Assembly (NCBI GenBank): GCA_963697995.1
Contig: OY969110.1
Location: 1,511,404 to 1,575,403 of the forward strand
Reading direction: 5' to 3'
Length of the DNA: 64,000 nt
Origin: an uncultured Chlamydiae bacterium
GTDB lineage: Bacteria > Chlamydiota > Chlamydiia > Chlamydiales > JAJFMB01
A model generated the notes under the pieces. It saw nothing but the letters and a program-made list of their open reading frames with translations, was not told the DNA's origin and made no database searches. Made by a program: the position numbers and the translations under genes. Shown here piece after piece: positions 9,273 through 44,619 of the stretch (positions are counted from its first letter, which is position 1; each line of letters starts with the position of its first letter).

Positions 9273-10337
9273 TTAGAAGGCGAAATTGGCTCCGAAGAAC
9301 AGGCCATTGAAACCTAAGTTTCTTCCTGTTCTTGTCGTTGACACAAGAGGTCTATCGGAGAAAATCTCTCCAATAAAATGTCTTGTGTTTGGGACATTTA
9401 ACCACTCGACAAACTCATAACCTATGTGTAAATCAACGGCACATCGGTAAATAGAGACTAAATATCTGGTCCCTATTTGGAGTTGGAAGCCAGGCATCAT
9501 GTGAGTGCATCCATTCTCGCAAATCTCAATTTTTGGTTTTTCGTAGCAGGCCTCAAACGATTGATCATCTTCCGTTACACCTCTTTGAAACCAATGCTTG
9601 ATAGTAGGTTCGCCAGAAACCATTGAGAGTGAGCCTCTTCCAAAGATTTTAAGGCAAGAAATCAGATTGTATTCGTAATCTGTTCCAACTTTAATTCCCA
9701 CTCCCCAAACATCTCCTTTAAAATGACCATCGACTTGACTTGCCTGGTAGTAATCAAAAGGATTTGAAAGGACGGTGTTCATTTGCTGTCTTAGATAAAT
9801 TCCTTCAACACCAAAGAATGGCATCGCGTTAAAGCAGGGGTTGCTGCAAATCGGGAAGGTGAATAAAAGGTCTGCGGCCTGATAAGTTGAACTCCAGTTG
9901 GATCCCACGATTTCAAAACGTCTATTTGTGGGAATCAGGGAAGTCACGGCAGATCCGCTAAAGCTGCCTTCATCTGAGTGGCGAATAAAGACGTATGAGC
10001 CTCTCAAATTAGCATTGCTTAAGAAGTTGCGGATCGAAAATTGCGCTCTGACTCCCGGTTTCCACTTAGGACAGAGGGTGTTGATCATGTATACACCCGT
10101 TGTAGCTTCTCTTGTTTTTCCCTTTTCAGTCGGACATTCGCAAGGGACTGATCTTGAGCTAAATCCAAAATCTAAATTATCAGCTGATTGTTTCCACCAA
10201 AGAAAATCTGCTCCTGCTTCAAAGCAGCACCCACAGTAGGCGGCATCGAAGGGGTTGTTTTCAAAGTAAGCTTTTGCCGGATTTGGAAAAGCTAAAATTG
10301 TTACTGCAAACATTGCAGCTCGTATCCATAGTCTCAT
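9273..10337 (-). CDS. MOMP-like cysteine-rich outer-membrane beta-barrel porin
   Basis: Signal peptide ending AKA and a Cys cluster CGCCFEAGADFLWWK, similar to the FLYWK motif of chlamydial/Legionella MOMP-family proteins. The sequence has an alternating beta pattern and the C-terminus is GANFAF. Confidence 0.7.
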   Translation of the reverse strand: MRLWIRAAMFAVTILAFPNPAKAYFENNPFDAAYCGCCFEAGADFLWWKQSADNLDFGFSSRSVPCECPTEKGKTREATTGVYMINTLCPKWKPGVRAQFSIRNFLSNANLRGSYVFIRHSDEGSFSGSAVTSLIPTNRRFEIVGSNWSSTYQAADLLFTFPICSNPCFNAMPFFGVEGIYLRQQMNTVLSNPFDYYQASQVDGHFKGDVWGVGIKVGTDYEYNLISCLKIFGRGSLSMVSGEPTIKHWFQRGVTEDDQSFEACYEKPKIEICENGCTHMMPGFQLQIGTRYLVSIYRCAVDLHIGYEFVEWLNVPNTRHFIGEIFSDRPLVSTTRTGRNLGFNGLFFGANFAF

Positions 10338-19228: not shown

Positions 19229-21055
19229 ATGAATCCTTTAACTATTCTTAATAAACTAGAGGCTCGATCGTTAGAGGTCGACGCTCTTGGTGAAGATCAG
19301 CTTATAGAAGTTGTTGAGGCAGCTCTCTCAGACGAGGCCTGGAGAGCTTCAAACCTCGATTTGACCAAGAAATTGATTCTACGCGTCGAGGATGTGGCAG
19401 CTAGCTCAAAGCCTGTAGCTCTTACCTTCTCTCCCCAAGAGGAGACAGATATTCAGAAGGTGATTTCCCTTTGCAAAGGTTTAATTAAAAAACTCGATTT
19501 AAGTCAGCTTGGTTTTTTAGGGGTGGACCTTCCTAATATTCAGGAGCTTAAGAATTTAGAAGAGCTTTCATTAGTCGGTTGGGAAGAGTTAGAGAAACTA
19601 CCCGATTTAACAGAGTTTAAGCACTTAAAAAAAATGGATTTGGGTGGTTGTAAAAGTTTAAAAGATTTTTCTTTTTTGAAAGAACTTAAAGAGTTAGAAG
19701 TTCTTGATTTAACGGATTGTTCGATAACCGATTTTTCATTTTTAAAGGAATTGAAACACTTAAAAGTTTTGGATTTAAGTGGGTGTCGTATTAAGACTTT
19801 TCCCGATTTAGGAGAGTGTAAAAACCTTGAATCAGTGACTCTTTGGGGATCTCAAGTTTCGACTCCTCTTTGTTTTAAAAATTTGAAGAGTATAAATTTT
19901 GAGAACTCAAATATCGTTTTTACGGAAGAGGAGTGGAAGGAGTTTAAACGAGATAATCCCGATTGTTTGGTAAAAATCAATGAAAAGACTATAGAACCTT
20001 TTGTGAAAGCTATTTTGGGTGTGGAACTGGAAGGAAAAAAAGGGTTGATCCCTTACTCTTTAGCAAAAAAGATGGCCGAGTACTTTTTTCTGCATCAAGT
20101 TAGAGAAAGGGAAGGGTATACGTATTATAACAAAGAGATGAGTGGATTGCCCTTTAGTTTTGAAGTTCAGGATAAGAGGATTATCATCTTGTTAAAGCAG
20201 GAGTTTAAAAAGGGGCATCAGTTGCTTTTAAATCTTCCCCACTTTTGTAAGAGGGGAGATTCAAAAAAAGTGACCATTGGATTAGATATTACGGACGGGG
20301 TTCCTTGCGCCTATCTTAGTCTGAATCTGTCTTTAGAAGAGAGATTAAAGGGAGCTTTTGGAAAAGAGCAACTGGCTAAAGAGCTTGATTATTTGAAAAA
20401 ATATGGAGGGGTGGAGTTTTTGACTCGAGGGTCCCACAAGGCTAAACGAGGGGGAAAAGGTAAAGTGAAAGGGGATGAGATTGAGACGTTTACGATGTTT
20501 TTGGCTAAAGGAACAGGGAATGATCTTAAGGCCCTTGGTTTAAATGAAAAAGAGATCAGGGTGTGCTTTTTTGACATAAGCTTAGCTCTTCAAAAAATGC
20601 ACCACGATGGGGTGATTCATCGAGATATCAAGCCTTTAAATATTCTTGTGGGAAAAGATCACAGAGCAAAGATCAACGATTTTGGACTTTCAGGTCCTGA
20701 ATTTATCGATGGTGGTCCTTTGTTATTCTTTTCCCCTGAAAAAGTTGAGAGGAAGAGAACACCTGCGCTTGATGAAGAGAAATCGGATGATCTTTTTGCC
20801 TTGGCATTGACGATCGTTGATATGGTTTCTAATATGGAGGGGTGGTCAAAGTTTTATTTTCTAAATTACAATAAGGAAAATCCTCGACTGGGGATTGAAA
20901 TGGCATTAAATGACTTTAAAAAGGCCCTTGCGGAAAATAAATCGGAAGACTCGGATGAGAAGAGAGTGTATGAGTGTGTTCTAGATATTTTGAATAATTA
21001 CAACAAACCAAGCTATACCATAGATAACGTCGTTAATTTCTTGTCAAGTTCATAA
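19229..21055 (+). CDS. Leucine-rich-repeat protein fused to a eukaryotic-like Ser/Thr protein kinase domain
   Basis: About 6 LRRs (LKNLEELSLVGWEELEKLPDL, LKHLKKMDLGGCKSLKDFSFL, LKELEVLDLTDCSITDFSFL, LKHLKVLDLSGCRIKTFPDL). Kinase catalytic loop VIHRDIKPLNILV, then INDFGLS (DFG) and FSPE (APE-like). Confidence 0.8.
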   Translation: MNPLTILNKLEARSLEVDALGEDQLIEVVEAALSDEAWRASNLDLTKKLILRVEDVAASSKPVALTFSPQEETDIQKVISLCKGLIKKLDLSQLGFLGVDLPNIQELKNLEELSLVGWEELEKLPDLTEFKHLKKMDLGGCKSLKDFSFLKELKELEVLDLTDCSITDFSFLKELKHLKVLDLSGCRIKTFPDLGECKNLESVTLWGSQVSTPLCFKNLKSINFENSNIVFTEEEWKEFKRDNPDCLVKINEKTIEPFVKAILGVELEGKKGLIPYSLAKKMAEYFFLHQVREREGYTYYNKEMSGLPFSFEVQDKRIIILLKQEFKKGHQLLLNLPHFCKRGDSKKVTIGLDITDGVPCAYLSLNLSLEERLKGAFGKEQLAKELDYLKKYGGVEFLTRGSHKAKRGGKGKVKGDEIETFTMFLAKGTGNDLKALGLNEKEIRVCFFDISLALQKMHHDGVIHRDIKPLNILVGKDHRAKINDFGLSGPEFIDGGPLLFFSPEKVERKRTPALDEEKSDDLFALALTIVDMVSNMEGWSKFYFLNYNKENPRLGIEMALNDFKKALAENKSEDSDEKRVYECVLDILNNYNKPSYTIDNVVNFLSSS

Positions 21056-36176: not shown

Positions 36177-36504
36177 GGAGTTTAAGCTCTTTTTTTGATG
36201 GGGTGACTTGCAATCTTTTTAGGGGGGATTCGGTGTGAGAATTTAGTTTTGAAAAGGTGTATTTAGGAGTTTTGTATCGTATTAGGGTCAACTCATCTTC
36301 GTAAAAAATCGCTTTTGGGTACGTTAACCGATTGATATAAAGGGCGCTTGGAATAAAGAGGAAAAATTCTTGAATAAATGTCGACTTTTTTTCGGTTTGA
36401 GCGAGGGGGAAATCTGATTTCAGTTCAAATTGGAGATTATCGCGGAAATTGATATCCCCCTCATTTAAGTCGCGCCAGAAGCTACTTGTCCAAAACTCAT
36501 CCAT
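36109..36504 (-). CDS. Hypothetical protein (probably the N-terminal fragment of the same gene, separated by a 1-nt frame change in an A7 tract)
   Basis: The ATG overlaps the stop of the upstream porin gene (TAATG). The reading frame meets the 35088-36176 frame at the homopolymer 36190-36196. Confidence 0.45.
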   Translation of the reverse strand: MDEFWTSSFWRDLNEGDINFRDNLQFELKSDFPLAQTEKKSTFIQEFFLFIPSALYINRLTYPKAIFYEDELTLIRYKTPKYTFSKLNSHTESPLKRLQVTPSKKELKLLANIFRSTLRKRGTPYHTKQRC

Positions 36505-37685
36505 TAGAAATCGATGCTGCCTCCAACACGCAATCCTTGAAGAGTATAAGTTCCAAGACTTCTTTGAGTATCAGGCGTTAAGGTGATGAGTCTGTTGTGA
36601 TCAAACCACACTTGTGCTTCCCATGCGACAAGTCCCCGAATCACATAGCAGCCGCTGCAAATAGGCAATTCCCATCTTAGACCGATAGAGCTCTCAAGTA
36701 TGGGGAGAACATTTCTTGTGCAAGCGCTTGCCGAGAAAATTTTGTTGAAGTAACTGTAGCAGCTATTACAGGTGTTGCAATCGTTGCATCCATTTGAATT
36801 GTTGTTGCAGCTGTTGCATCCATTTGAATTGTTGTTGCAGCTGTTGCACGATTTGCCACAAGTGCTACACCCGTTGTTGCAAGAGTTTTGTACAGTCATC
36901 GCATCGTATAAGTTAGTGCAATCGTATCGACAATTTTGATAGCGGCTCCAAAGGGCCGAAAATGAAAAATCGGCAAAAATGGCTGTACACCATCCAAAGT
37001 GGGAGGCCATATCGAGTCCCACTCTTGGTCCCGCTCCCCAAACGGATTGTTTTTGGGTGATGTCGTAGTCATTAAAGAGATAACCAAAGTAGCTAACGGA
37101 ATAGTTTTGTTTATCCCAAACCCCTTTTGCACCAAAGTGAGGACGTACGGAAAACCAGTCGTTGACGAAAAACTCGTTGGCAATATCTAAATCGAGAATA
37201 TTGACGCGAGTTGACCAGGAGGCTTGAGCTTGATCGAGAAGCTCTAAGTTTCCTCTACAGTTAAGAAGAGAATTGACTGTGGCAAAGTAAGCGACGAGGT
37301 CAGTTCCTAGCTGATTATTTGTGATGCAGGAACTTGTTTTCTCATTAAATTGGGTATAAACAATCGAAAGATCCCATCCGGAGCAGTCGAAAAGCAGCCC
37401 AGCACCAGCTTTAAAGCCTGAGTTAAATTTCCAGTTCATGTCGTAAATGGTGCCTTGCTGACAAACAGCATAACTAAAAGGGGAATTGTTTCCAGAGTAG
37501 GCAAACTTGAGGCCATCTTCGCGAGCAGTCCAGTATAGGTATTCACCGCGTAAATAGAACGCAGGGTAGCTCCAAAGCACGGCACTTTTACAGTTTGAGG
37601 GAACTTCTGCGTAGCAGGGAACCCCTTGGGCCTGTAATAGGGTTGGAAAAAGGGCAAACATTGCGATAAGCGTGTGTTTCAACAT
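36504..37685 (-). CDS. MOMP-like cysteine-rich outer-membrane porin with a Cys/Asn-rich repeat loop
   Basis: Signal peptide MLKHTLIAMFALFPTLLQAQG, FYLRGEYLYWTAREDGL (MOMP-family FLYW-type motif), CNSCNNNSNGCNSCNNNSNGCNDCNTCNSC, C-terminus VGGSIDF. Confidence 0.7.
   Translation of the reverse strand: MLKHTLIAMFALFPTLLQAQGVPCYAEVPSNCKSAVLWSYPAFYLRGEYLYWTAREDGLKFAYSGNNSPFSYAVCQQGTIYDMNWKFNSGFKAGAGLLFDCSGWDLSIVYTQFNEKTSSCITNNQLGTDLVAYFATVNSLLNCRGNLELLDQAQASWSTRVNILDLDIANEFFVNDWFSVRPHFGAKGVWDKQNYSVSYFGYLFNDYDITQKQSVWGAGPRVGLDMASHFGWCTAIFADFSFSALWSRYQNCRYDCTNLYDAMTVQNSCNNGCSTCGKSCNSCNNNSNGCNSCNNNSNGCNDCNTCNSCYSYFNKIFSASACTRNVLPILESSIGLRWELPICSGCYVIRGLVAWEAQVWFDHNRLITLTPDTQRSLGTYTLQGLRVGGSIDF
36781..36840. 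repeat. 30-bp tandem repeat x2 inside the porin gene
   Basis: TCGTTGCATCCATTTGAATTGTTGTTGCAG / CTGTTGCATCCATTTGAATTGTTGTTGCAG, encoding CNSCNNNSNG twice. Confidence 0.85.
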
Positions 37686-37844: not shown

Positions 37845-39383
37845 ATGAAGTTAAAAATCAATACGCCTTTAGTTTTCATTTTTTTTGCCTTAGGGTTTTC
37901 CATAATGTTGTTAACGGCTGATTTTTCGGCCATTAGTGTCACCCTGCCTTATCTTTCGAAAGAATTTGCTGTTAATAAAGAGTCATTGAGCGTAATCCTC
38001 AATCTCTATTTAGTTTTTTTTGTGATTTTAATGATTCCAGGAGGGCGTCTTGCCGATTATTTGGGAAGAAAAAAGGTGTTTTTGTTTGGTCTTTTAGTTT
38101 TTGCCTTGGCCTCTTTGACAGCCGGTCTTGCGGACAATTTTAAGTTTTTTGTCGCAGCAAGAGCTTTTCAAGGTATAGGAGCCGCTCTTTTTTTTCCAGC
38201 AAGTCTTGGTATCTGTTACGGGGTGGTTCCCGAGCAAAAACAGAGTTTTGCAGTGGGGCTTCTTTTGGCAATGGCAGGTATTGGATTTGCCGCCGGCTCA
38301 TTTTTTGCAAATGCTTTAATCGATGCTGTTGGTTGGCGTTTTGTTTTTTTTGTGCCCGTTGGTGTGGCGACGTTTGCCTTTATTTTAGCTCTTTTTCAAC
38401 TTGAAAATGAGGGGATTGAGAGTAAGGAGAGTTTAGGGGACACCTTTGGTTTAATCACCTTGACGGTGGCTCTTTGTTCTTTTCTTTTTGCAATGCAAAG
38501 AACGGGCCTTTTTGGGCTGATCTCATTTCCTGTTCTTGGGTGGTTGCTGTTTTCCTTTCTTTGTTTTTTACTGATGTTTTTTGTCGAGAGAAAGGTCCCT
38601 TCTCCTCTTATTCCAAGGGAGCTTTTTTCCAATCGGCAATTTTGGGTAGCGACCCTTTTGATAACAGTGATTTCCCCCGCTTTTTTTTCAGAGCTTCTCT
38701 TTCTTCCTCAGCTTATGCAAAAATTTTTAGGTTTTAGTCCGATGCTCTCTTGCTTAGGCCTTTTGCCCATTTGGGTTGTTTGGGCGCTCATTTCACCTGT
38801 TGCCGGCGATCTTTATAGTTATTTTGGTGGAAAACTGTTGGTGGCTATGGCAACTTTTTTAATTGCCATGGGGGCTTTTGTGTTTGGATTTGTTGGTTCA
38901 GAGGATAGTTACTTTTTTCTTCTTCCTGGTTTAATTCTTTCAGGCATTGGGTTTGGTTTTGGATTTACGTGCATCACAAATCTCGGGATGAGTGCAGTCG
39001 ATGAGAGTAAATCGAGTTTTGCTGGCGGTGTCCTTTATACATTTTTAGTCCTTGGGGGACTTTTGGGGCTTGCTTTTTCCCGGGAGATTTTTTTAGTCGT
39101 CTCAAGGCTTGTTTTATCAAATGAGATAGAGCACCTCTCCTTTATCCTCGATGAGCCAAAAAAGAAAATGGCTGAGGACTTTTTGATAAACAATTCGAGC
39201 TTTTTCTCTTTTTCGCAAGACAACTATCTAATGGATCAGTTGCCGATGATGAACTTTTTAAAAATGGCCTTTTCGAAGGGTTTTTTTGCGAGTATGCTCT
39301 TTAGCGCTTTAAGCGCCCTTGTAGGGGCCCTTTTGGCTTTTTTCTATTTAAAAAATACAGATCACAATTTAAAGCCAAACTGA
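37845..39383 (+). CDS. MFS transporter, DHA2 (EmrB/QacA-like, 14-TMS) family
   Basis: PGGRLADYLGRKKVF (MFS motif A) and 512 aa with ~14 TMS. The last codons lie in the first relic of the downstream repeat array. Confidence 0.8.
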   Translation: MKLKINTPLVFIFFALGFSIMLLTADFSAISVTLPYLSKEFAVNKESLSVILNLYLVFFVILMIPGGRLADYLGRKKVFLFGLLVFALASLTAGLADNFKFFVAARAFQGIGAALFFPASLGICYGVVPEQKQSFAVGLLLAMAGIGFAAGSFFANALIDAVGWRFVFFVPVGVATFAFILALFQLENEGIESKESLGDTFGLITLTVALCSFLFAMQRTGLFGLISFPVLGWLLFSFLCFLLMFFVERKVPSPLIPRELFSNRQFWVATLLITVISPAFFSELLFLPQLMQKFLGFSPMLSCLGLLPIWVVWALISPVAGDLYSYFGGKLLVAMATFLIAMGAFVFGFVGSEDSYFFLLPGLILSGIGFGFGFTCITNLGMSAVDESKSSFAGGVLYTFLVLGGLLGLAFSREIFLVVSRLVLSNEIEHLSFILDEPKKKMAEDFLINNSSFFSFSQDNYLMDQLPMMNFLKMAFSKGFFASMLFSALSALVGALLAFFYLKNTDHNLKPN

Positions 39384-40110
39384 TTGCCCAACTCACACGG
39401 TCTTAAATCGATGTGAAAGACAAAACGCTTTAAGCAAAATGGGGTGCGGTGCCGAAGAGAAAGTCACAATCTGAAGCTAAAACTTCTTAAATCGATGTGA
39501 AAGACAAAACGCTTAAAGCAAAATGGGGTGCGGTGCCGAAGAGAAAGTCACAATCTGAAGCTAAAACTTCTTAAATCGATGTGAAAGACAAAACGCTTAA
39601 AGCAAAAAGATTGCAGTGCCGAAGAGAAAGTCACAATCTGAAGCTAAAACTTCTTAAATCGATGTGAAAGACAAAAACGCTTAAAGCAAAAAGATTGCAG
39701 TGCCGAAGAGAAAGTCTCAAACTGAAGCTAAACTGATTGCCCAACTCAAATCGATGTGAAAGACGAAACGCTTAAAGCAAAAAGATTGTAGTGCCGAAGA
39801 GAAAGTCGCAATCTGAAGCTAAAACTTCTTAAATCGATGTGAAAGACGAAAACGCTTAAAGCAAAAAGATTGCAGTGCCGAAGAGAAAGTCTCAATCTGA
39901 AGCTAAACTGATTGCCCAACTCATATCGATGTGAAAGACAAAACACTTAAAGCAAAATGGGGTGCGGTGCCGAAGAGAAAGTCACAATCTGAAGCTAAAA
40001 CTTCTTAAATCGATGTGAAAGACAAAAACGCTTAAAGCAAAATGGGGTGCGGTACTGATGACAAAGTCACAACCTGAAGCCAAACTGATTGCCCGACTCA
40101 TACCGTCTTA
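39362..40110. repeat. Array of 8 tandem 83-92-bp units plus a terminal relic, all derived from the 3' end of the ABC-2 permease gene
   Basis: ATCGATGTG recurs at 39407, 39491, 39575, 39658, 39750, 39833, 39925 and 40009, extended as ATCGATGTGAAAGAC in each unit. On the minus strand the units end in ..TTCAGATTGTGA like the true gene end ..TTCAGGTTGTGA. Confidence 0.9.
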
Positions 40111-40849
40111 AACCGAGATTAAAGATAAAAACACTTAAAGCTAAAAAGGATGCGGTACCGAAGATTAGAAGGGCTAAATTTAAAAACGAGAACTGTTTTA
40201 AAAGCTCGACGGGTAAATAACCAATGAAACCTGCTGGAATTACCGTAAACATCATCATCTCAAGCACTCCTGAGTAAATATTTGTGGGATAAAGTGCAAA
40301 TAGAAAAAGAGAGTCACAATACTTTTTAGAGACGCTTTCAATGGGACCGATCCAGAAGGCGAGGCTGTGAGCTATAATCCCCATAGAGGTGAAAACTAAA
40401 CTTCCACAAACCATGCAAAGAACGATTAAAGAAACAGCTTTAAGTGTTGTTAATCCCCCCATAAACATTAGAAAAGTGGTTGTTATCAGATACCCCCAAC
40501 CTTTTGAGTACGATTTTGAACTTGCAATCTGAAGAAGAATATTTTTAGGTTGCGTCATAAAAGGATCTAAATCACCGCTTAAGATCATCCTCGAGAGGTT
40601 TTTTATCCCACCGGCTGTGATTTGCATCAATCCATAGGCCCCCATTCCGATCGCATTAAGAGCTATCATGTCGTTAAAGGTCCAGCCACCTATCGTTTTA
40701 AACTGCCTAAAGAAAAGCCACCACATAAGAATAAAGATGAGGTTGTTGCCAAGCATTAAAACGCATTCGATGAGGAATGCTCCTCGTACACTGATAGACG
40801 ACCTAATACTTGTCTTAAGAAGAGCTAGAAAAAAAATAAGGGTTTTCAT
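40067..40849 (-). CDS. ABC-2 type transporter permease (subunit 2)
   Basis: 6-TMS ABC-2/DUF990-like permease. ATG at 40849 overlaps the stop of the upstream permease (TAATG). The longer ORF start at 40927 is rejected. Confidence 0.7.
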   Translation of the reverse strand: MKTLIFFLALLKTSIRSSISVRGAFLIECVLMLGNNLIFILMWWLFFRQFKTIGGWTFNDMIALNAIGMGAYGLMQITAGGIKNLSRMILSGDLDPFMTQPKNILLQIASSKSYSKGWGYLITTTFLMFMGGLTTLKAVSLIVLCMVCGSLVFTSMGIIAHSLAFWIGPIESVSKKYCDSLFLFALYPTNIYSGVLEMMMFTVIPAGFIGYLPVELLKQFSFLNLALLIFGTASFLALSVFIFNLGLRRYESGNQFGFRL

Positions 40850-41637
40850 TACCCCCCCTCGATGGTGACAATTTTTAACCCTTTTCGGTAAATGAGAGTT
40901 AAGATCAGGGTTGTCATCAAGATCCAAAGAAAAAGAGAAGCTGTCAAACAGACTGTTTCAAAGATGCCCCCGTTAAGTGCAAGAGCGCTTCTTCCCCCTA
41001 ATATAAGGGGAAAAGGAGTGAAATAGGCAATTTTTTGCAAAATTTTCGGGTAGAGGCTCAAAGGGATTAGTAGACCCCCAAACGCAAAGAGTAGCTTTTC
41101 TAAAATCCAGTAAAAGGGTCCGATATCTCTTAACCAAAAAGCTGAGAGTCCCACGATCATTTGAAGTAAAACCCCTAAAATACCTGCAAAGAGTCCAAGA
41201 AATAGGGTCACTGGTAAAACAGCTAACGAAAAGGGAAATCCCTCTGTCATCCAAAAGGTGAAGCTAAACGAAATCACCCCCAAAACGATGAGGTTCACCA
41301 CAAGTATGCCAAGCGCCTCAAAAAAAACCGACCCTAAGTAGGAGATCGGGCGAGGTAAAAGGTAGCTTAATTTTCCACTTTGTAAATCCTCCTCCATGGT
41401 GTCTTGTATCTCGGGCAAAGAGATTAAAACCCATTCGTTAAGAGCGATGTACCAAAGCAGTTGAATGGGTGTGAAAATCTCCTTTGCTGCCCCTGTTTGC
41501 TTCCAAAGATTTGCGAAAATAATCAAACACGTGACAAGGAAAAGACTTAATCCCATAAGAATTTTGTAGTTTTTTAACGAGTTGATGAACGAAAGACGAA
41601 AAATGGCGAAATATTTATTAATCATGCCCGTTGCCAT
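40849..41637 (-). CDS. ABC-2 type transporter permease (subunit 1)
   Basis: 262 aa, 6 TMS. Overlaps the ATPase gene by 20 nt, giving the operon order ATPase-permease-permease. Confidence 0.7.
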   Translation of the reverse strand: MATGMINKYFAIFRLSFINSLKNYKILMGLSLFLVTCLIIFANLWKQTGAAKEIFTPIQLLWYIALNEWVLISLPEIQDTMEEDLQSGKLSYLLPRPISYLGSVFFEALGILVVNLIVLGVISFSFTFWMTEGFPFSLAVLPVTLFLGLFAGILGVLLQMIVGLSAFWLRDIGPFYWILEKLLFAFGGLLIPLSLYPKILQKIAYFTPFPLILGGRSALALNGGIFETVCLTASLFLWILMTTLILTLIYRKGLKIVTIEGG

Positions 41638-42607
41638 AGAGATGTCGAATAATTTCCTCTAAAGAGGGGTCTTCGATGGTTACGTCTTTTAAGGTGGTCA
41701 GTTTCAGCGCTTCGTGAATCACTTGGTCGATCGGAGTCTGACTTAAAACAACCTCGCAAACAAAATGGTAGTGCGCATTTTCAAGCACTTTAAGGCCGGG
41801 TAGCCCCTTTAATGAAAGCACCTCTTCATCTGTTGTCAGGGTCAGAATTTTTTTCTTCACGTACATTTTTTTTAGCTCTCTTAAAGAGCAATCGAGGATA
41901 ATAGCCCCTTTGTCCAAAACGATCACTCGGTCTGAAACTTGCTCGATATCTGCTGTGTCGTGGGAGGTTAAAAAAAGGGTAGTTCCCCTCTCCTTCGAAA
42001 GTTTGTTGAGAAGCCCTCTTATTTTAAGTTTAGCGTTGATGTCAAGCCCAATCGTGGGTTCGTCGAGAAATAAGATTTTTGGGTTGTGTAGAAGGCTTGC
42101 CACAATTTCACACCTCATCCTCTCCCCAAGGGAGAGCTGCCTTACTGGCTTATCGAGATAGGGGGTGATTTCGAAGGCCTCTGAGAGTTCTAAAAGTTGA
42201 GAGCGGTAATTCTTTTCCCCAATTTCATAAATTTTTGAGAGCAGATCAAAAGTGTCTAAAGGGGGTAACTGACTCCAAAGTTGGGAGCGTTGCCCAAAGA
42301 CAGTGCCGATTTGAACCCCAAGCTCTCGTCTGTTTTTTGAAGGGACAAGGTCAAGCACTTTGATTTGCCCAGAAGAGGGGTAAAGAATTCCTGTAAGCAT
42401 TTTTATGGTCGTTGATTTGCCCGCACCATTTGGGCCAATGAAAGCGACCCTTTCAGCTCGTCTTACATTAAAAGAGATGTTTTTTATAGCTGGAATTTCA
42501 AACGTCTTAGAAGCAAAAAGTCCTTTTAAGGCTCCCAAAACCCCAGGGAAGTTTTCCCTTACGAGAAAGTTTTTGGTAAGGTTTTGGACAACAATGGCAT
42601 CTGACAT
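41618..42607 (-). CDS. ABC transporter ATP-binding protein
   Basis: Walker A GPNGAGKST, signature LSLGERMR, Walker B ILFLDEPTIGLD, H-loop TSHD. Confidence 0.9.
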   Translation of the reverse strand: MSDAIVVQNLTKNFLVRENFPGVLGALKGLFASKTFEIPAIKNISFNVRRAERVAFIGPNGAGKSTTIKMLTGILYPSSGQIKVLDLVPSKNRRELGVQIGTVFGQRSQLWSQLPPLDTFDLLSKIYEIGEKNYRSQLLELSEAFEITPYLDKPVRQLSLGERMRCEIVASLLHNPKILFLDEPTIGLDINAKLKIRGLLNKLSKERGTTLFLTSHDTADIEQVSDRVIVLDKGAIILDCSLRELKKMYVKKKILTLTTDEEVLSLKGLPGLKVLENAHYHFVCEVVLSQTPIDQVIHEALKLTTLKDVTIEDPSLEEIIRHLYGNGHD

Positions 42608-42709
42608 AAGATAATCTTGAAAAGGTGCCCGAATGATATCTTAAAAAACCGATTTTAATCAAGAAATGACGGGAGAAATTTTTTTTTCTCCCGTCAATAA
42701 GAGAATGAA

Positions 42710-43258
42710 TTACTCATCACCGATTTGAGGAGGCTTTGTCTCATCGATATTTCTTGAAAGAAATATCATCGAAAGACCTAAAAATAGCAGGTTGATACCC
42801 ACTAAAAGCCCTATCACCCAAGAAGCTGTTCCTGGAAATCCGCTCCAGATAATGGCTGAAATGATCACACTCAAAATACCACTGACTAACAACCAACCCC
42901 AGTTTTCGTAATTTTTAAGGCGAAATGAGAAGTAAATCTTAGCTATTCCTTCGATAAGGAAAAAGATTGCCAAGAAAAGTGTCAGCGTTAACATTCCACT
43001 CCAGGGGTGTGTTAGCAAAATTCCCCCTGCGGCCAGGTAAAGAAGAGATAGAACGATTGACCAAATAATTTCAAGAGCTCTTTTAAGCTCAAATGTTTTG
43101 ATCCCTTGCACTATTCCTCCAGCTACAAAGAGTGCTCCTACTAAAAGTTCAACACTTAAACTTGAAAGTGTTGGCATCGCAATAGCAAAGAGCCCTAGCA
43201 AGAAAAGAAGCACTCCCTCAAAGAGGAAGAGACCTCGTGTTTTTTGTATAATGTCCAT
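42710..43258 (-). CDS. HdeD/DUF308 family membrane protein
   Basis: 182 aa, 6 short TMS. The N-terminus GLFLFEGVLLFLLGLFAIAMP is typical of DUF308 repeats. Confidence 0.6.
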   Translation of the reverse strand: MDIIQKTRGLFLFEGVLLFLLGLFAIAMPTLSSLSVELLVGALFVAGGIVQGIKTFELKRALEIIWSIVLSLLYLAAGGILLTHPWSGMLTLTLFLAIFFLIEGIAKIYFSFRLKNYENWGWLLVSGILSVIISAIIWSGFPGTASWVIGLLVGINLLFLGLSMIFLSRNIDETKPPQIGDE

Positions 43259-43517
43259 AGATCCGCATCCCTTTTTTAAATAAACCTTAAAACCTTAAGC
43301 TTCAAGATTTTCAATTTTATCCAAGATAAGGAGCAAGTGGTGTGGACCCGCTTGCTCCTTTTTATGGCCTTTTCAACTAAATATTAATTAAACGTAACTT
43401 TCTATTACTAATTTATAACTAATAATTCGAAATGTCAAACTAATTATTTTAATTATTTTACATTGCTTAAAATGAGTGATTTGGAACAAATTAGGTCAAC
43501 TCCTTATAGAGCGATTT

Positions 43518-44597
43518 ATGAGAGTTTTAGTCATTAATTCAGGTTCTTCAAGTATTAAATGGTCCCTTTATCAAGAGGAGGAGTTACTTCTTTTTGGGCA
43601 TATTGAGAGAATAGGGCACCAGGGGGCTAGTTTTTTTATTGGTGAGAATTCTATCTTAGGTTTTGATTTATCAGACCATAAAAAAGCGTTCGAAGCGCTT
43701 ATTCACTCTATTAAGGAGGAGCTTCGAGGTGTCGATGCGATTTCTCATAGAATTGTGCATGGGGGAAGAAGCTTTGTGTACCCAACGGTAATCACCAAAG
43801 AGGTTTTGGAAGTTTTAAGGAAGTTAATTCCATTAGCCCCTGAACATATGCCGGCAGCTATTTTTGGCATTGAGGCGTTTCAAAACGAGTTTAAGGTCAT
43901 TCAGGTGGCATGTTTTGATACCGCTTTTCATGCCAATATGTGGGATGTTGCCAAAAGGTTACCGGTTCCGAAACAGCTCGATGAGTGGGGGGTGTGCCGC
44001 TTTGGGTTCCATGGCCTTTCGTATCAGTCTATTGTTTATAAGTTGCGCACTTTAAATCGGTTAAAGGAGAAGCTTGTTGTGGCCCATCTTGGCAATGGAT
44101 GTAGTTTAGCTGCAATCTTTAAGGGTGTAGGGGTCGACACGACGATGGGGATGACTCCTCTTGGGGGGGTGCCGATGGGAAGTCGCGCAGGCGATTTAGA
44201 CCCTGGTGTCTTGCTTTATCTGTTAAGAGAGAGGGGATATGATGAAAGGGGGTTAGATAAGCTTCTCAATGAAAAGTGTGGTCTTTTAGGGGTATCAGGC
44301 ATTTCTTCCGATATGAAGGAATTGCTTGAGTCTCCCAAGGGATCAGCTCAATTTGCAGTTGATTTTTTTTGTTACCAGGTGAGTAAAAGTGTGGCTGCTA
44401 TGACAGTGCCTCTTTCAGGGATTGACACCCTTGTTTTTACGGGCGGTATTGGTGAAAGAGCTGAAGCTGTTCGGGAAAATATTTGCAAACGGATTAAGTT
44501 TTTAGGCGATTTTGAGGTTTTAGTGGTCAAGACGGATGAAGAGTTGATGATGGTTAAAGAAACTCTAGAAATTTTGGAAAAAACTCCCAAGCCTTAA
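43518..44597 (+). CDS. ackA: Acetate kinase (acetate/propionate kinase family)
   Basis: MRVLVINSGSSSIKWSLY, HRIVHGG, GFHGLSY, AHLGNGCS, LVFTGGIGE. The internal ATG is preferred to the upstream start at 43476. Confidence 0.8.
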   Translation: MRVLVINSGSSSIKWSLYQEEELLLFGHIERIGHQGASFFIGENSILGFDLSDHKKAFEALIHSIKEELRGVDAISHRIVHGGRSFVYPTVITKEVLEVLRKLIPLAPEHMPAAIFGIEAFQNEFKVIQVACFDTAFHANMWDVAKRLPVPKQLDEWGVCRFGFHGLSYQSIVYKLRTLNRLKEKLVVAHLGNGCSLAAIFKGVGVDTTMGMTPLGGVPMGSRAGDLDPGVLLYLLRERGYDERGLDKLLNEKCGLLGVSGISSDMKELLESPKGSAQFAVDFFCYQVSKSVAAMTVPLSGIDTLVFTGGIGERAEAVRENICKRIKFLGDFEVLVVKTDEELMMVKETLEILEKTPKP

Positions 44598-44612
44598 AGA
44601 GCTTGGGAGTTT
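44578..44612 (-). terminator. Rho-independent terminator candidate for the Gly/Cys-rich peptide gene (embedded in the ackA 3' end)
   Basis: CTCCCAAGC (44584-44592) pairs with GCTTGGGAG (44601-44609). On the minus strand the stem is followed by TTTTTT (complement of 44578-44583). Confidence 0.5.
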
Positions 44613-44619
44613 AATAAGC

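Follow-up and report, generated by a model that had tools for sequence, protein, structure and literature searches.

Two kinds of bacterial variable-number tandem repeat (VNTR) come closest to the locus described here. In Wolbachia wMel, the intergenic VNTR-105 and VNTR-141 contain internally deleted periods and have copy numbers that vary from strain to strain, a behavior attributed to slipped-strand mispairing, and a passage of the same paper cites Ehrlichia ruminantium as an extreme case of such intergenic VNTRs (PMC3287509). Of 88 Yersinia pestis VNTRs, 10 extend over the stop codon that ends an open reading frame (ORF), and copy-number changes there are expected to affect the protein less than those at start codons (PMC3689786). 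Our results revealed a related arrangement in a 64,000-nt stretch of DNA from an uncultured Chlamydiae bacterium (GenBank assembly GCA_963697995.1, contig OY969110.1, positions 1,511,404 to 1,575,403 of the forward strand), which is the whole stretch that we analyzed and is hereafter called the window. Specifically, an array of eight tandem units, homologous to the 3' end of an ABC-2 family permease gene, lies between the 3' ends of that gene and of a convergent transporter gene of the major facilitator superfamily (MFS). With a probability of roughly 0.8, we read this locus as a lineage-specific, non-coding minisatellite that arose from the permease 3' end, that slippage or unequal crossing-over has maintained and remodeled, and that most likely has no function.

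The repeat itself was evident by several routes. The original prediction, which was made from the letters alone, placed the string ATCGATGTG at eight positions, and exact matches were recovered at every one of them (39407, 39491, 39575, 39658, 39750, 39833, 39925 and 40009). Tandem Repeats Finder reported 8.0 copies of an 84-nt period over 39401-40084 (87% matches, score 902), together with a higher-order period of 175 nt (score 1049). When the whole window was searched with the 15-mer GTCTTTCACATCGAT, all eight of its exact copies fell within the array. With up to three mismatches allowed, the window held 11 matches where 1.73 were expected, and a 32-mer spanning the unit junction, at the same tolerance, gave seven matches against none expected (100 shuffles). 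We cut the units on the minus strand so that each ends at the position equivalent to the permease stop codon, and aligned them to the last 105 nt of the gene. This yielded eight units of 83-102 nt, arranged head to tail without spacers over 39362-40066 of the minus strand, 3' of the permease stop, or nine copies in register when the live tail of the gene is counted. In order along the minus strand, the parent gene, its tail, the units, and the convergent gene beyond them are as follows.

40067-40849, minus strand: ABC-2 family permease gene (ABC2_membrane_6; Pfam PF06182, E = 2.9e-25), 260 aa, intact, the parent of the repeat
40067-40171, minus strand: live 3' tail of the permease gene, 105 nt, the duplicated segment as recognized by alignment with the units, encoding LLIFGTASFLALSVFIFNLGLRRYESGNQFGFRL*
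39982-40066, minus strand: unit u7, 85 nt, subtype A, short junction, placed by alignment directly after the live stop codon
39890-39981, minus strand: unit u6, 92 nt, subtype A, long junction, with a 10-nt deletion in the alignment relative to u0
39806-39889, minus strand: unit u5, 84 nt, subtype B, short junction, 1-2 mismatches from u2 and u3
39715-39805, minus strand: unit u4, 91 nt, subtype B, long junction, within the 175-nt duplicated two-unit block
39631-39714, minus strand: unit u3, 84 nt, subtype B, short junction (from the alignment)
39548-39630, minus strand: unit u2, 83 nt, subtype B, short junction, differing from u3 by a single base in a T run
39464-39547, minus strand: unit u1, 84 nt, subtype A, short junction (from the alignment)
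39362-39463, minus strand: unit u0, 102 nt, subtype A, the sole full-length pseudo-tail in the alignment, ending ..HIDLRPCELGNQFGFKL*, assigned to a repeat family of 83% identity over 64 nt
37845-39383, plus strand: MFS transporter gene, 512 aa (Pfam MFS_1, E = 4.2e-50), convergent to the permease gene

The live tail, which ends in a TGA stop codon, aligns over its whole length with the array units. Identity is 75-82% between units and live tail and 81-100% among the units, and the full-length unit u0 matches the live tail at 80.6% over 98 nt (blastn E = 2.6e-19); judged from these alignments, the homology of the units to the permease tail is far beyond chance. The initial description of the units as copies of the permease 3' end, stop codon included, thus holds, and only its length of about 95 nt needs revision, the copied segment being 105 nt. 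The unit translations quoted with that description (FALSVFVFHIDL, HRYELGNQFSFRL and CELGNQFGFKL*) are all present in the minus-strand alignment, the two sequence subtypes and two junction types exist as proposed, and the outermost unit does run into the end of the MFS gene. Specifically, the MFS ORF ends at 39383 and has its last seven codons within u0 (39362-39463), the final 22 nt of which are antisense to them.

The units also retain a legible history. All eight carry TTTCACATCGAT where the live tail has TTTAATCTCGGT, and all eight have a 2-nt deletion near the unit 5' end that the live tail does not have. On the evidence of the alignment, these shared derived states demonstrate descent from one spare copy that had already diverged, and not repeated copying of the gene. 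Units with the short junction retain TTAAGA and lack GAGTTGGGCAATC, and units with the long junction retain GAGTTGGGCAATCAG and lack TAAGACCGTG; because u0 has both junction segments, the short and long types must be independent deletions of a full-length unit. Further, subtypes A and B differ at six adjacent alignment columns, and all four combinations of subtype and junction occur (u7, A/short; u6, A/long; u5, B/short; u4, B/long), which requires exchange between units. A two-unit block of 175 nt is duplicated at 97% identity (39570-39744 versus 39745-39919), as read from the array, and u2, u3 and u5 are only 0-2 substitutions apart, so that the latest expansions are recent. One-base differences in T runs between units may be sequence errors, although the T5 run of u7 is confirmed by a short-read contig. 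These patterns bear out the earlier suggestion that amplification proceeded in blocks of one and two units. They also single out a hotspot of slippage or unequal crossing-over as the reading that the evidence supports among the three first put forward, given the four combinations, the 97% block, and exact repeats of up to 92 nt. This last figure is the longest exact repeat within the array, versus 18 nt for the longest exact match between the live tail and any unit. Thus, the array can probably recombine with itself and hardly with the gene, and the live tail would be effectively insulated, because it has no more than 18 identical bases in common with any unit.

We read the following order of events from the alignment. 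The first step would have been a tandem duplication of the gene's final 105 bp, its stop codon among them, after which the gene kept the proximal copy unchanged. The distal copy would then have been redundant, with only its last 22 nt in use, in antisense, as the end of the convergent MFS ORF. Second, this spare copy decayed by two frameshifting indels and some 20 substitutions, breaking residues that the protein family has kept. Third, as the shared derived states show, the decayed copy, and not the live tail, was amplified. Fourth, two independent internal deletions produced the 92-nt and 84-nt unit types, with the two sequence subtypes arising as well. Finally, as the four combinations and the 97% block show, the units were shuffled and re-duplicated, in some cases very recently, probably by slipped-strand mispairing or unequal crossing-over. 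The spacer-less head-to-tail units, and the signs of turnover in the form of higher-order blocks and mosaic units, are those of a minisatellite. No function need be invoked for such an array, which sits where it would do least harm, between two convergent 3' ends, and we would expect its copy number to differ between strains.

The permease aligns over its full length to orthologues of 260-263 aa, the nearest of which is 70% identical at the protein level. No copy of the permease's own tail was found downstream of the gene at six distinct orthologous loci (L002, L003-L005, L015, L016/L017, L018 and L019), where the downstream neighbors of the permease differ from locus to locus. A 20-mer pattern search for the unit returned one chance match in genome contigs, eight single matches in metagenome contigs, and none in viral contigs, and by blastn none of the chance matches extended beyond 21-26 nt. 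Six loci without a tail copy, together with a unit that was not found in these collections, indicate that the array is specific to this lineage. Nor does the array appear to encode a protein: each of its six frames contains 8-16 stops, the longest open stretch is 66 codons, and an 11-codon ORF with an ATG start can be read in the subtype A units only.

Several points weigh against a neutral minisatellite. Its neutrality, like the molecular mechanism of its expansion, is a step that we infer, and it is drawn from the absence of signals, with the nearest orthologue available for comparison at the 70% identity given above. The divergence of about 20% between the spare copy and the live tail implies long persistence, which could hint at selective retention; continual turnover within a recombining array would explain such persistence equally well. 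Finally, the hallmark of a VNTR is variation in copy number, and the array is known here from one lineage.

Among the alternatives, the one that survives best is that the array is a functional RNA element that couples or buffers the two convergent transporters. Two variants can be envisaged: read-through of the permease operon would give its mRNA a long repetitive 3' untranslated region (UTR), and read-through of the MFS gene would produce an RNA in which the 3' end of the permease mRNA is represented eight times, imperfectly and in antisense. There is no terminator-like site between either stop codon and the array, which makes read-through from both sides plausible (the terminator-like hairpins of the scanned stretch lie only inside the MFS coding sequence), and the plus-strand units would be 75-82% complementary to the live tail. 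Yet neither the units nor the array as a whole fold better than shuffled sequences on either strand. Specifically, eight single units or strands gave z-scores of -0.08 to +1.75 against shuffles, and for the whole array the scores were +2.1 (minus strand) and +3.0 (plus strand), that is, less stable than shuffled sequence. Rfam gave no match at gathering scores over the whole window, and nothing relevant even at E <= 1 over 39000-40500; a scan for tRNA and tmRNA genes found none, and no promoter-like or terminator-like site was found in the array. Nothing similar occurs at the six orthologous loci, and the variation between units consists of deletions and blocks of substitutions with no compensatory pattern. 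We therefore consider an RNA element unlikely, and the structured 3' UTR or antisense RNA that had been offered as one possible meaning of the repeat finds no support in z-scores of -0.08 to +3.0 on both strands, in Rfam, or in promoter and terminator searches. Still less probable, and in our view very unlikely, is the specific version in which the array has been kept because it is transcribed, either as antisense RNA from MFS read-through or as a 700-nt 3' UTR of the permease operon that overlaps the MFS 3' end, and cross-regulates both transporters. Were this version true, repeat number would set the dose, and a gene's own tail would have given rise to an antisense regulator that is tunable by copy number. 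An array that is transcribed and acts on both transporters would be an interesting instance of repeat number tuning regulation; none of our findings points in that direction.

It is also quite unlikely, in our estimation, that the array is in part an assembly artefact, that is, a real repeat with the wrong number or order of units or the wrong homopolymer lengths. Such a possibility is raised by the fact that a short-read assembly breaks within the first unit and that several of the differences in unit length are single bases in T runs. Specifically, the short-read contig L001 (Logan, ERR11563597), from the same organism, matches the 10,837 nt of window positions 40013-50849 at 100% identity. 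It breaks off 54 nt into u7, where repetitive sequence begins and such a break is to be expected. This contig thereby backs the beginning of the array and shows that the repeat interrupts short-read contigs. Assembly errors would not create distinct substitutions and two deletions in a coherent higher-order pattern, and this independent contig agrees at every base with the first 54 nt of u7, the T5 run among them. The same sample also contains a permease homologue (P0061), 66% identical, from a 3.3-Mb genome.

A third alternative, also raised in the original prediction, casts the units as silent 3' cassettes, whose recombination into the permease would change its C-terminal helix. The pilS, vls and msp2 donor arrays would be the model for this. 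In Neisseria pilS, Borrelia vls and the Anaplasma msp2 pseudogenes, truncated 3' copies of an expressed gene lie in tandem near it, and these cassettes have open frames, conserved recombination flanks, and variable surface proteins as their targets. The layout here is similar, with partial 3' copies in tandem directly downstream of an expressed gene; none of those three properties is found. All units are frameshifted relative to the live tail, carrying frameshifting indels and deletions of 10-19 nt. The C-terminal motif GL[KR][RK]YESGN.FG.R. is almost unchanged across 23 permease orthologues (59-70% identity) and fits the live tail. In contrast, it is broken in every unit, which reads HIDLRPCELGNQFGFKL in u0, HIDLRSFSFRL in the short units and HRYELGNQFSFRL in the long units, with the GL[KR][RK]YESGN portion deleted or altered. 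A converted gene would acquire Arg, His and Lys in its last membrane helix, and a longest identity of 18 nt with the live tail makes a poor substrate for homologous recombination. The target, further, is probably an inner-membrane transporter subunit and not a variable surface protein. The alignment also revealed no unit-type patch in the live tail, which matches the family consensus; the gene-conversion tracts that exchange with the units might have left in the live gene are thus not seen. Taken together, these observations make a store of silent cassettes highly improbable.

Integration of an element at an attachment site in a gene tail and the templates of diversity-generating retroelements both leave a near-copy of a gene's 3' end downstream, the retroelement template repeat being a non-coding near-copy of the last ~100 bp of its target gene. 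That the units are leftovers of such enzyme-driven copying, whether through cycles of attachment-site integration and excision or as retroelement templates, is extremely improbable: a phage-type integrase gene does lie about 2.2 kb downstream of the orthologous permease in one relative (L018 5549-5792, the P0010 locus), but that relative has no copy of the permease tail in the 2.5 kb fetched downstream; Pfam scans detected no integrase, transposase, reverse transcriptase or other recombinase among the 47 ORFs of the 64-kb window; nothing lies between the units; and the mismatches between live tail and units show no specificity for adenine, the unit having A at only 8 of 19, and come with several indels. 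A diversity-generating retroelement was accordingly rejected on the missing reverse transcriptase domain, the mismatches at bases other than adenine, and the indels, to which can be added that there are eight copies here rather than one. Attachment-site duplication by an integrative element was rejected because the units abut, with no cargo DNA between them and no integrase in the window. Other repeat classes were set aside as well. A CRISPR (clustered regularly interspaced short palindromic repeats) array, already discounted when the locus was first noticed, is incompatible with a unit that repeats in its entirety and has no unique spacers between copies. Dispersed intergenic repeats, such as mycobacterial interspersed repetitive units (MIRUs), repetitive extragenic palindromic (REP) sequences or miniature inverted-repeat transposable elements (MITEs), would have copies elsewhere, and none was found within the 64 kb outside 39362-40171. 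A plasmid-type iteron or centromere array was rejected for want of rep or par genes among the window ORFs scanned.

A minisatellite born from a gene tail therefore remains our preferred reading, and the window offers a second instance of the type of event with which it would have begun. Of the 62 window ORFs that reach 100 aa or more, two have their final 90 nt copied downstream, namely the permease and ORF 57433-58386. The last 51 nt of the latter (58336-58386, ..KQWEMKKGLKLNPSAS*) recur at 100% identity at 58675-58725, 339 nt downstream, because a 340-nt tandem duplication unit takes in the gene tail together with an inverted-repeat element. By its sequence, this second duplicated gene end is younger than that of the permease, and two tail duplications in one window imply that tandem duplication capturing a gene end has happened more than once in this genome.

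The inverted-repeat element is one of a group of 282-nt elements, unrelated to the array, at 51501-52064 and 58394-59186. They are bounded by 20-nt terminal inverted repeats (TAGTCGGCCCTGAAAAAAGT ... ACTTTTTTAAGGGCCGACTA) and contain an internal G run of variable length; two tandem copies follow ORF 49618-51498, and two and a half follow ORF 57433-58386. One such element folds at -84 kcal/mol (z = -4.56), far better than shuffles, without a match in Rfam, and it resembles a MITE or a gene for a structured RNA. Simple repeats occur elsewhere in the window. A 30-nt repeat in 2.8 copies (36773-36855) encodes a Cys/Asn-rich stretch, CNSCNNNSNG..., within ORF 36504-37685, a Legionella_OMP-like outer-membrane protein whose second porin paralogue is located at 9273-10337. 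Just 3' of the acetate kinase gene (43476-44597), a 15-mer in 3.1 copies is followed by five copies of TCCCCA (44671-44756). Two NodZ-like paralogues of the fucosyltransferase family (32530-33402 and 34222-35091), with 82% identical proteins and one ORF between them, differ by one codon in the T run of their T-rich signal-peptide regions (T10 versus T7), where Tandem Repeats Finder lists AAAAGAT repeats.

As for the genomic setting, the repeat parent is the last gene of an operon whose other members lie upstream of it.

40849-41637, minus strand: first permease of the same operon (ORF list and Pfam)
41618-42607, minus strand: ABC ATPase of the same operon (ORF list and Pfam)

The convergent gene pair does not mark a replication terminus or a skew switch, as GC skew is positive throughout the window, which has a G+C content of about 40% and comes from a contig of 2.05 Mb. 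Beyond these genes, the window encodes several eukaryote-like proteins, namely a leucine-rich repeat (LRR) protein kinase, a UCH deubiquitinase and a HECT ubiquitin ligase, as well as a TLC ATP/ADP translocase. Pfam assigns these eukaryote-like and TLC genes to ORFs 19229-21055, 27269-28921, 49618-51498 and 53650-55194. RNase HIII is also encoded, as are the two Legionella_OMP-like porins. The ubiquitin-system domains, LRR kinase and TLC translocase, as predicted from their sequences, point to an intracellular lifestyle. The gene content would suit an environmental representative of the Chlamydiota or some comparable symbiont.

If the minisatellite reading is right, the locus provides a clean example of the birth of a bacterial minisatellite, in which the parent is still recognizable and the units themselves record what happened in turn, from duplication and decay through amplification and internal deletions to exchange between units. 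In practical terms, the array would probably be of use for typing strains of this uncultured intracellular bacterium, and it is a site where short-read assemblies break; its importance for biology at large is little.

Among described systems, mycobacterial MIRUs resemble the array in that they form tandem intergenic units of 40-100 bp that reach into the ends of genes (PMC12548453). They differ from it in being dispersed over many loci, in being apparently mobile, and in containing a short ORF that is coupled to the start codon downstream of it, whereas within the window the array unit occurs at one locus only, between two 3' ends. The likeness to Wolbachia VNTR-105 and VNTR-141 is closer: a period of about 100 bp, four to eight head-to-tail intergenic copies in a small genome, internal deletions in some periods (18-32 bp), and periods that are highly similar within an array. 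The Wolbachia periods, however, contain hairpins and are not described as copies of a neighboring gene's 3' end, whereas here the parent is identifiable and there is no hairpin signal. With the stop-codon VNTRs of Y. pestis, the array has in common that its first repeat holds the coding end of an ORF together with its stop codon, which places it among stop-codon-overlapping VNTRs. With such a layout, the encoded protein would be untouched by a change in copy number. The tabulated Y. pestis motifs are 8-41 bp long and near-identical, as opposed to 84-105 bp here, with downstream copies that have diverged by about 20% from the coding copy. The locus thus combines two known situations, that of the intergenic minisatellites with periods of about 100 bp and that of the VNTRs that overlap a stop codon.

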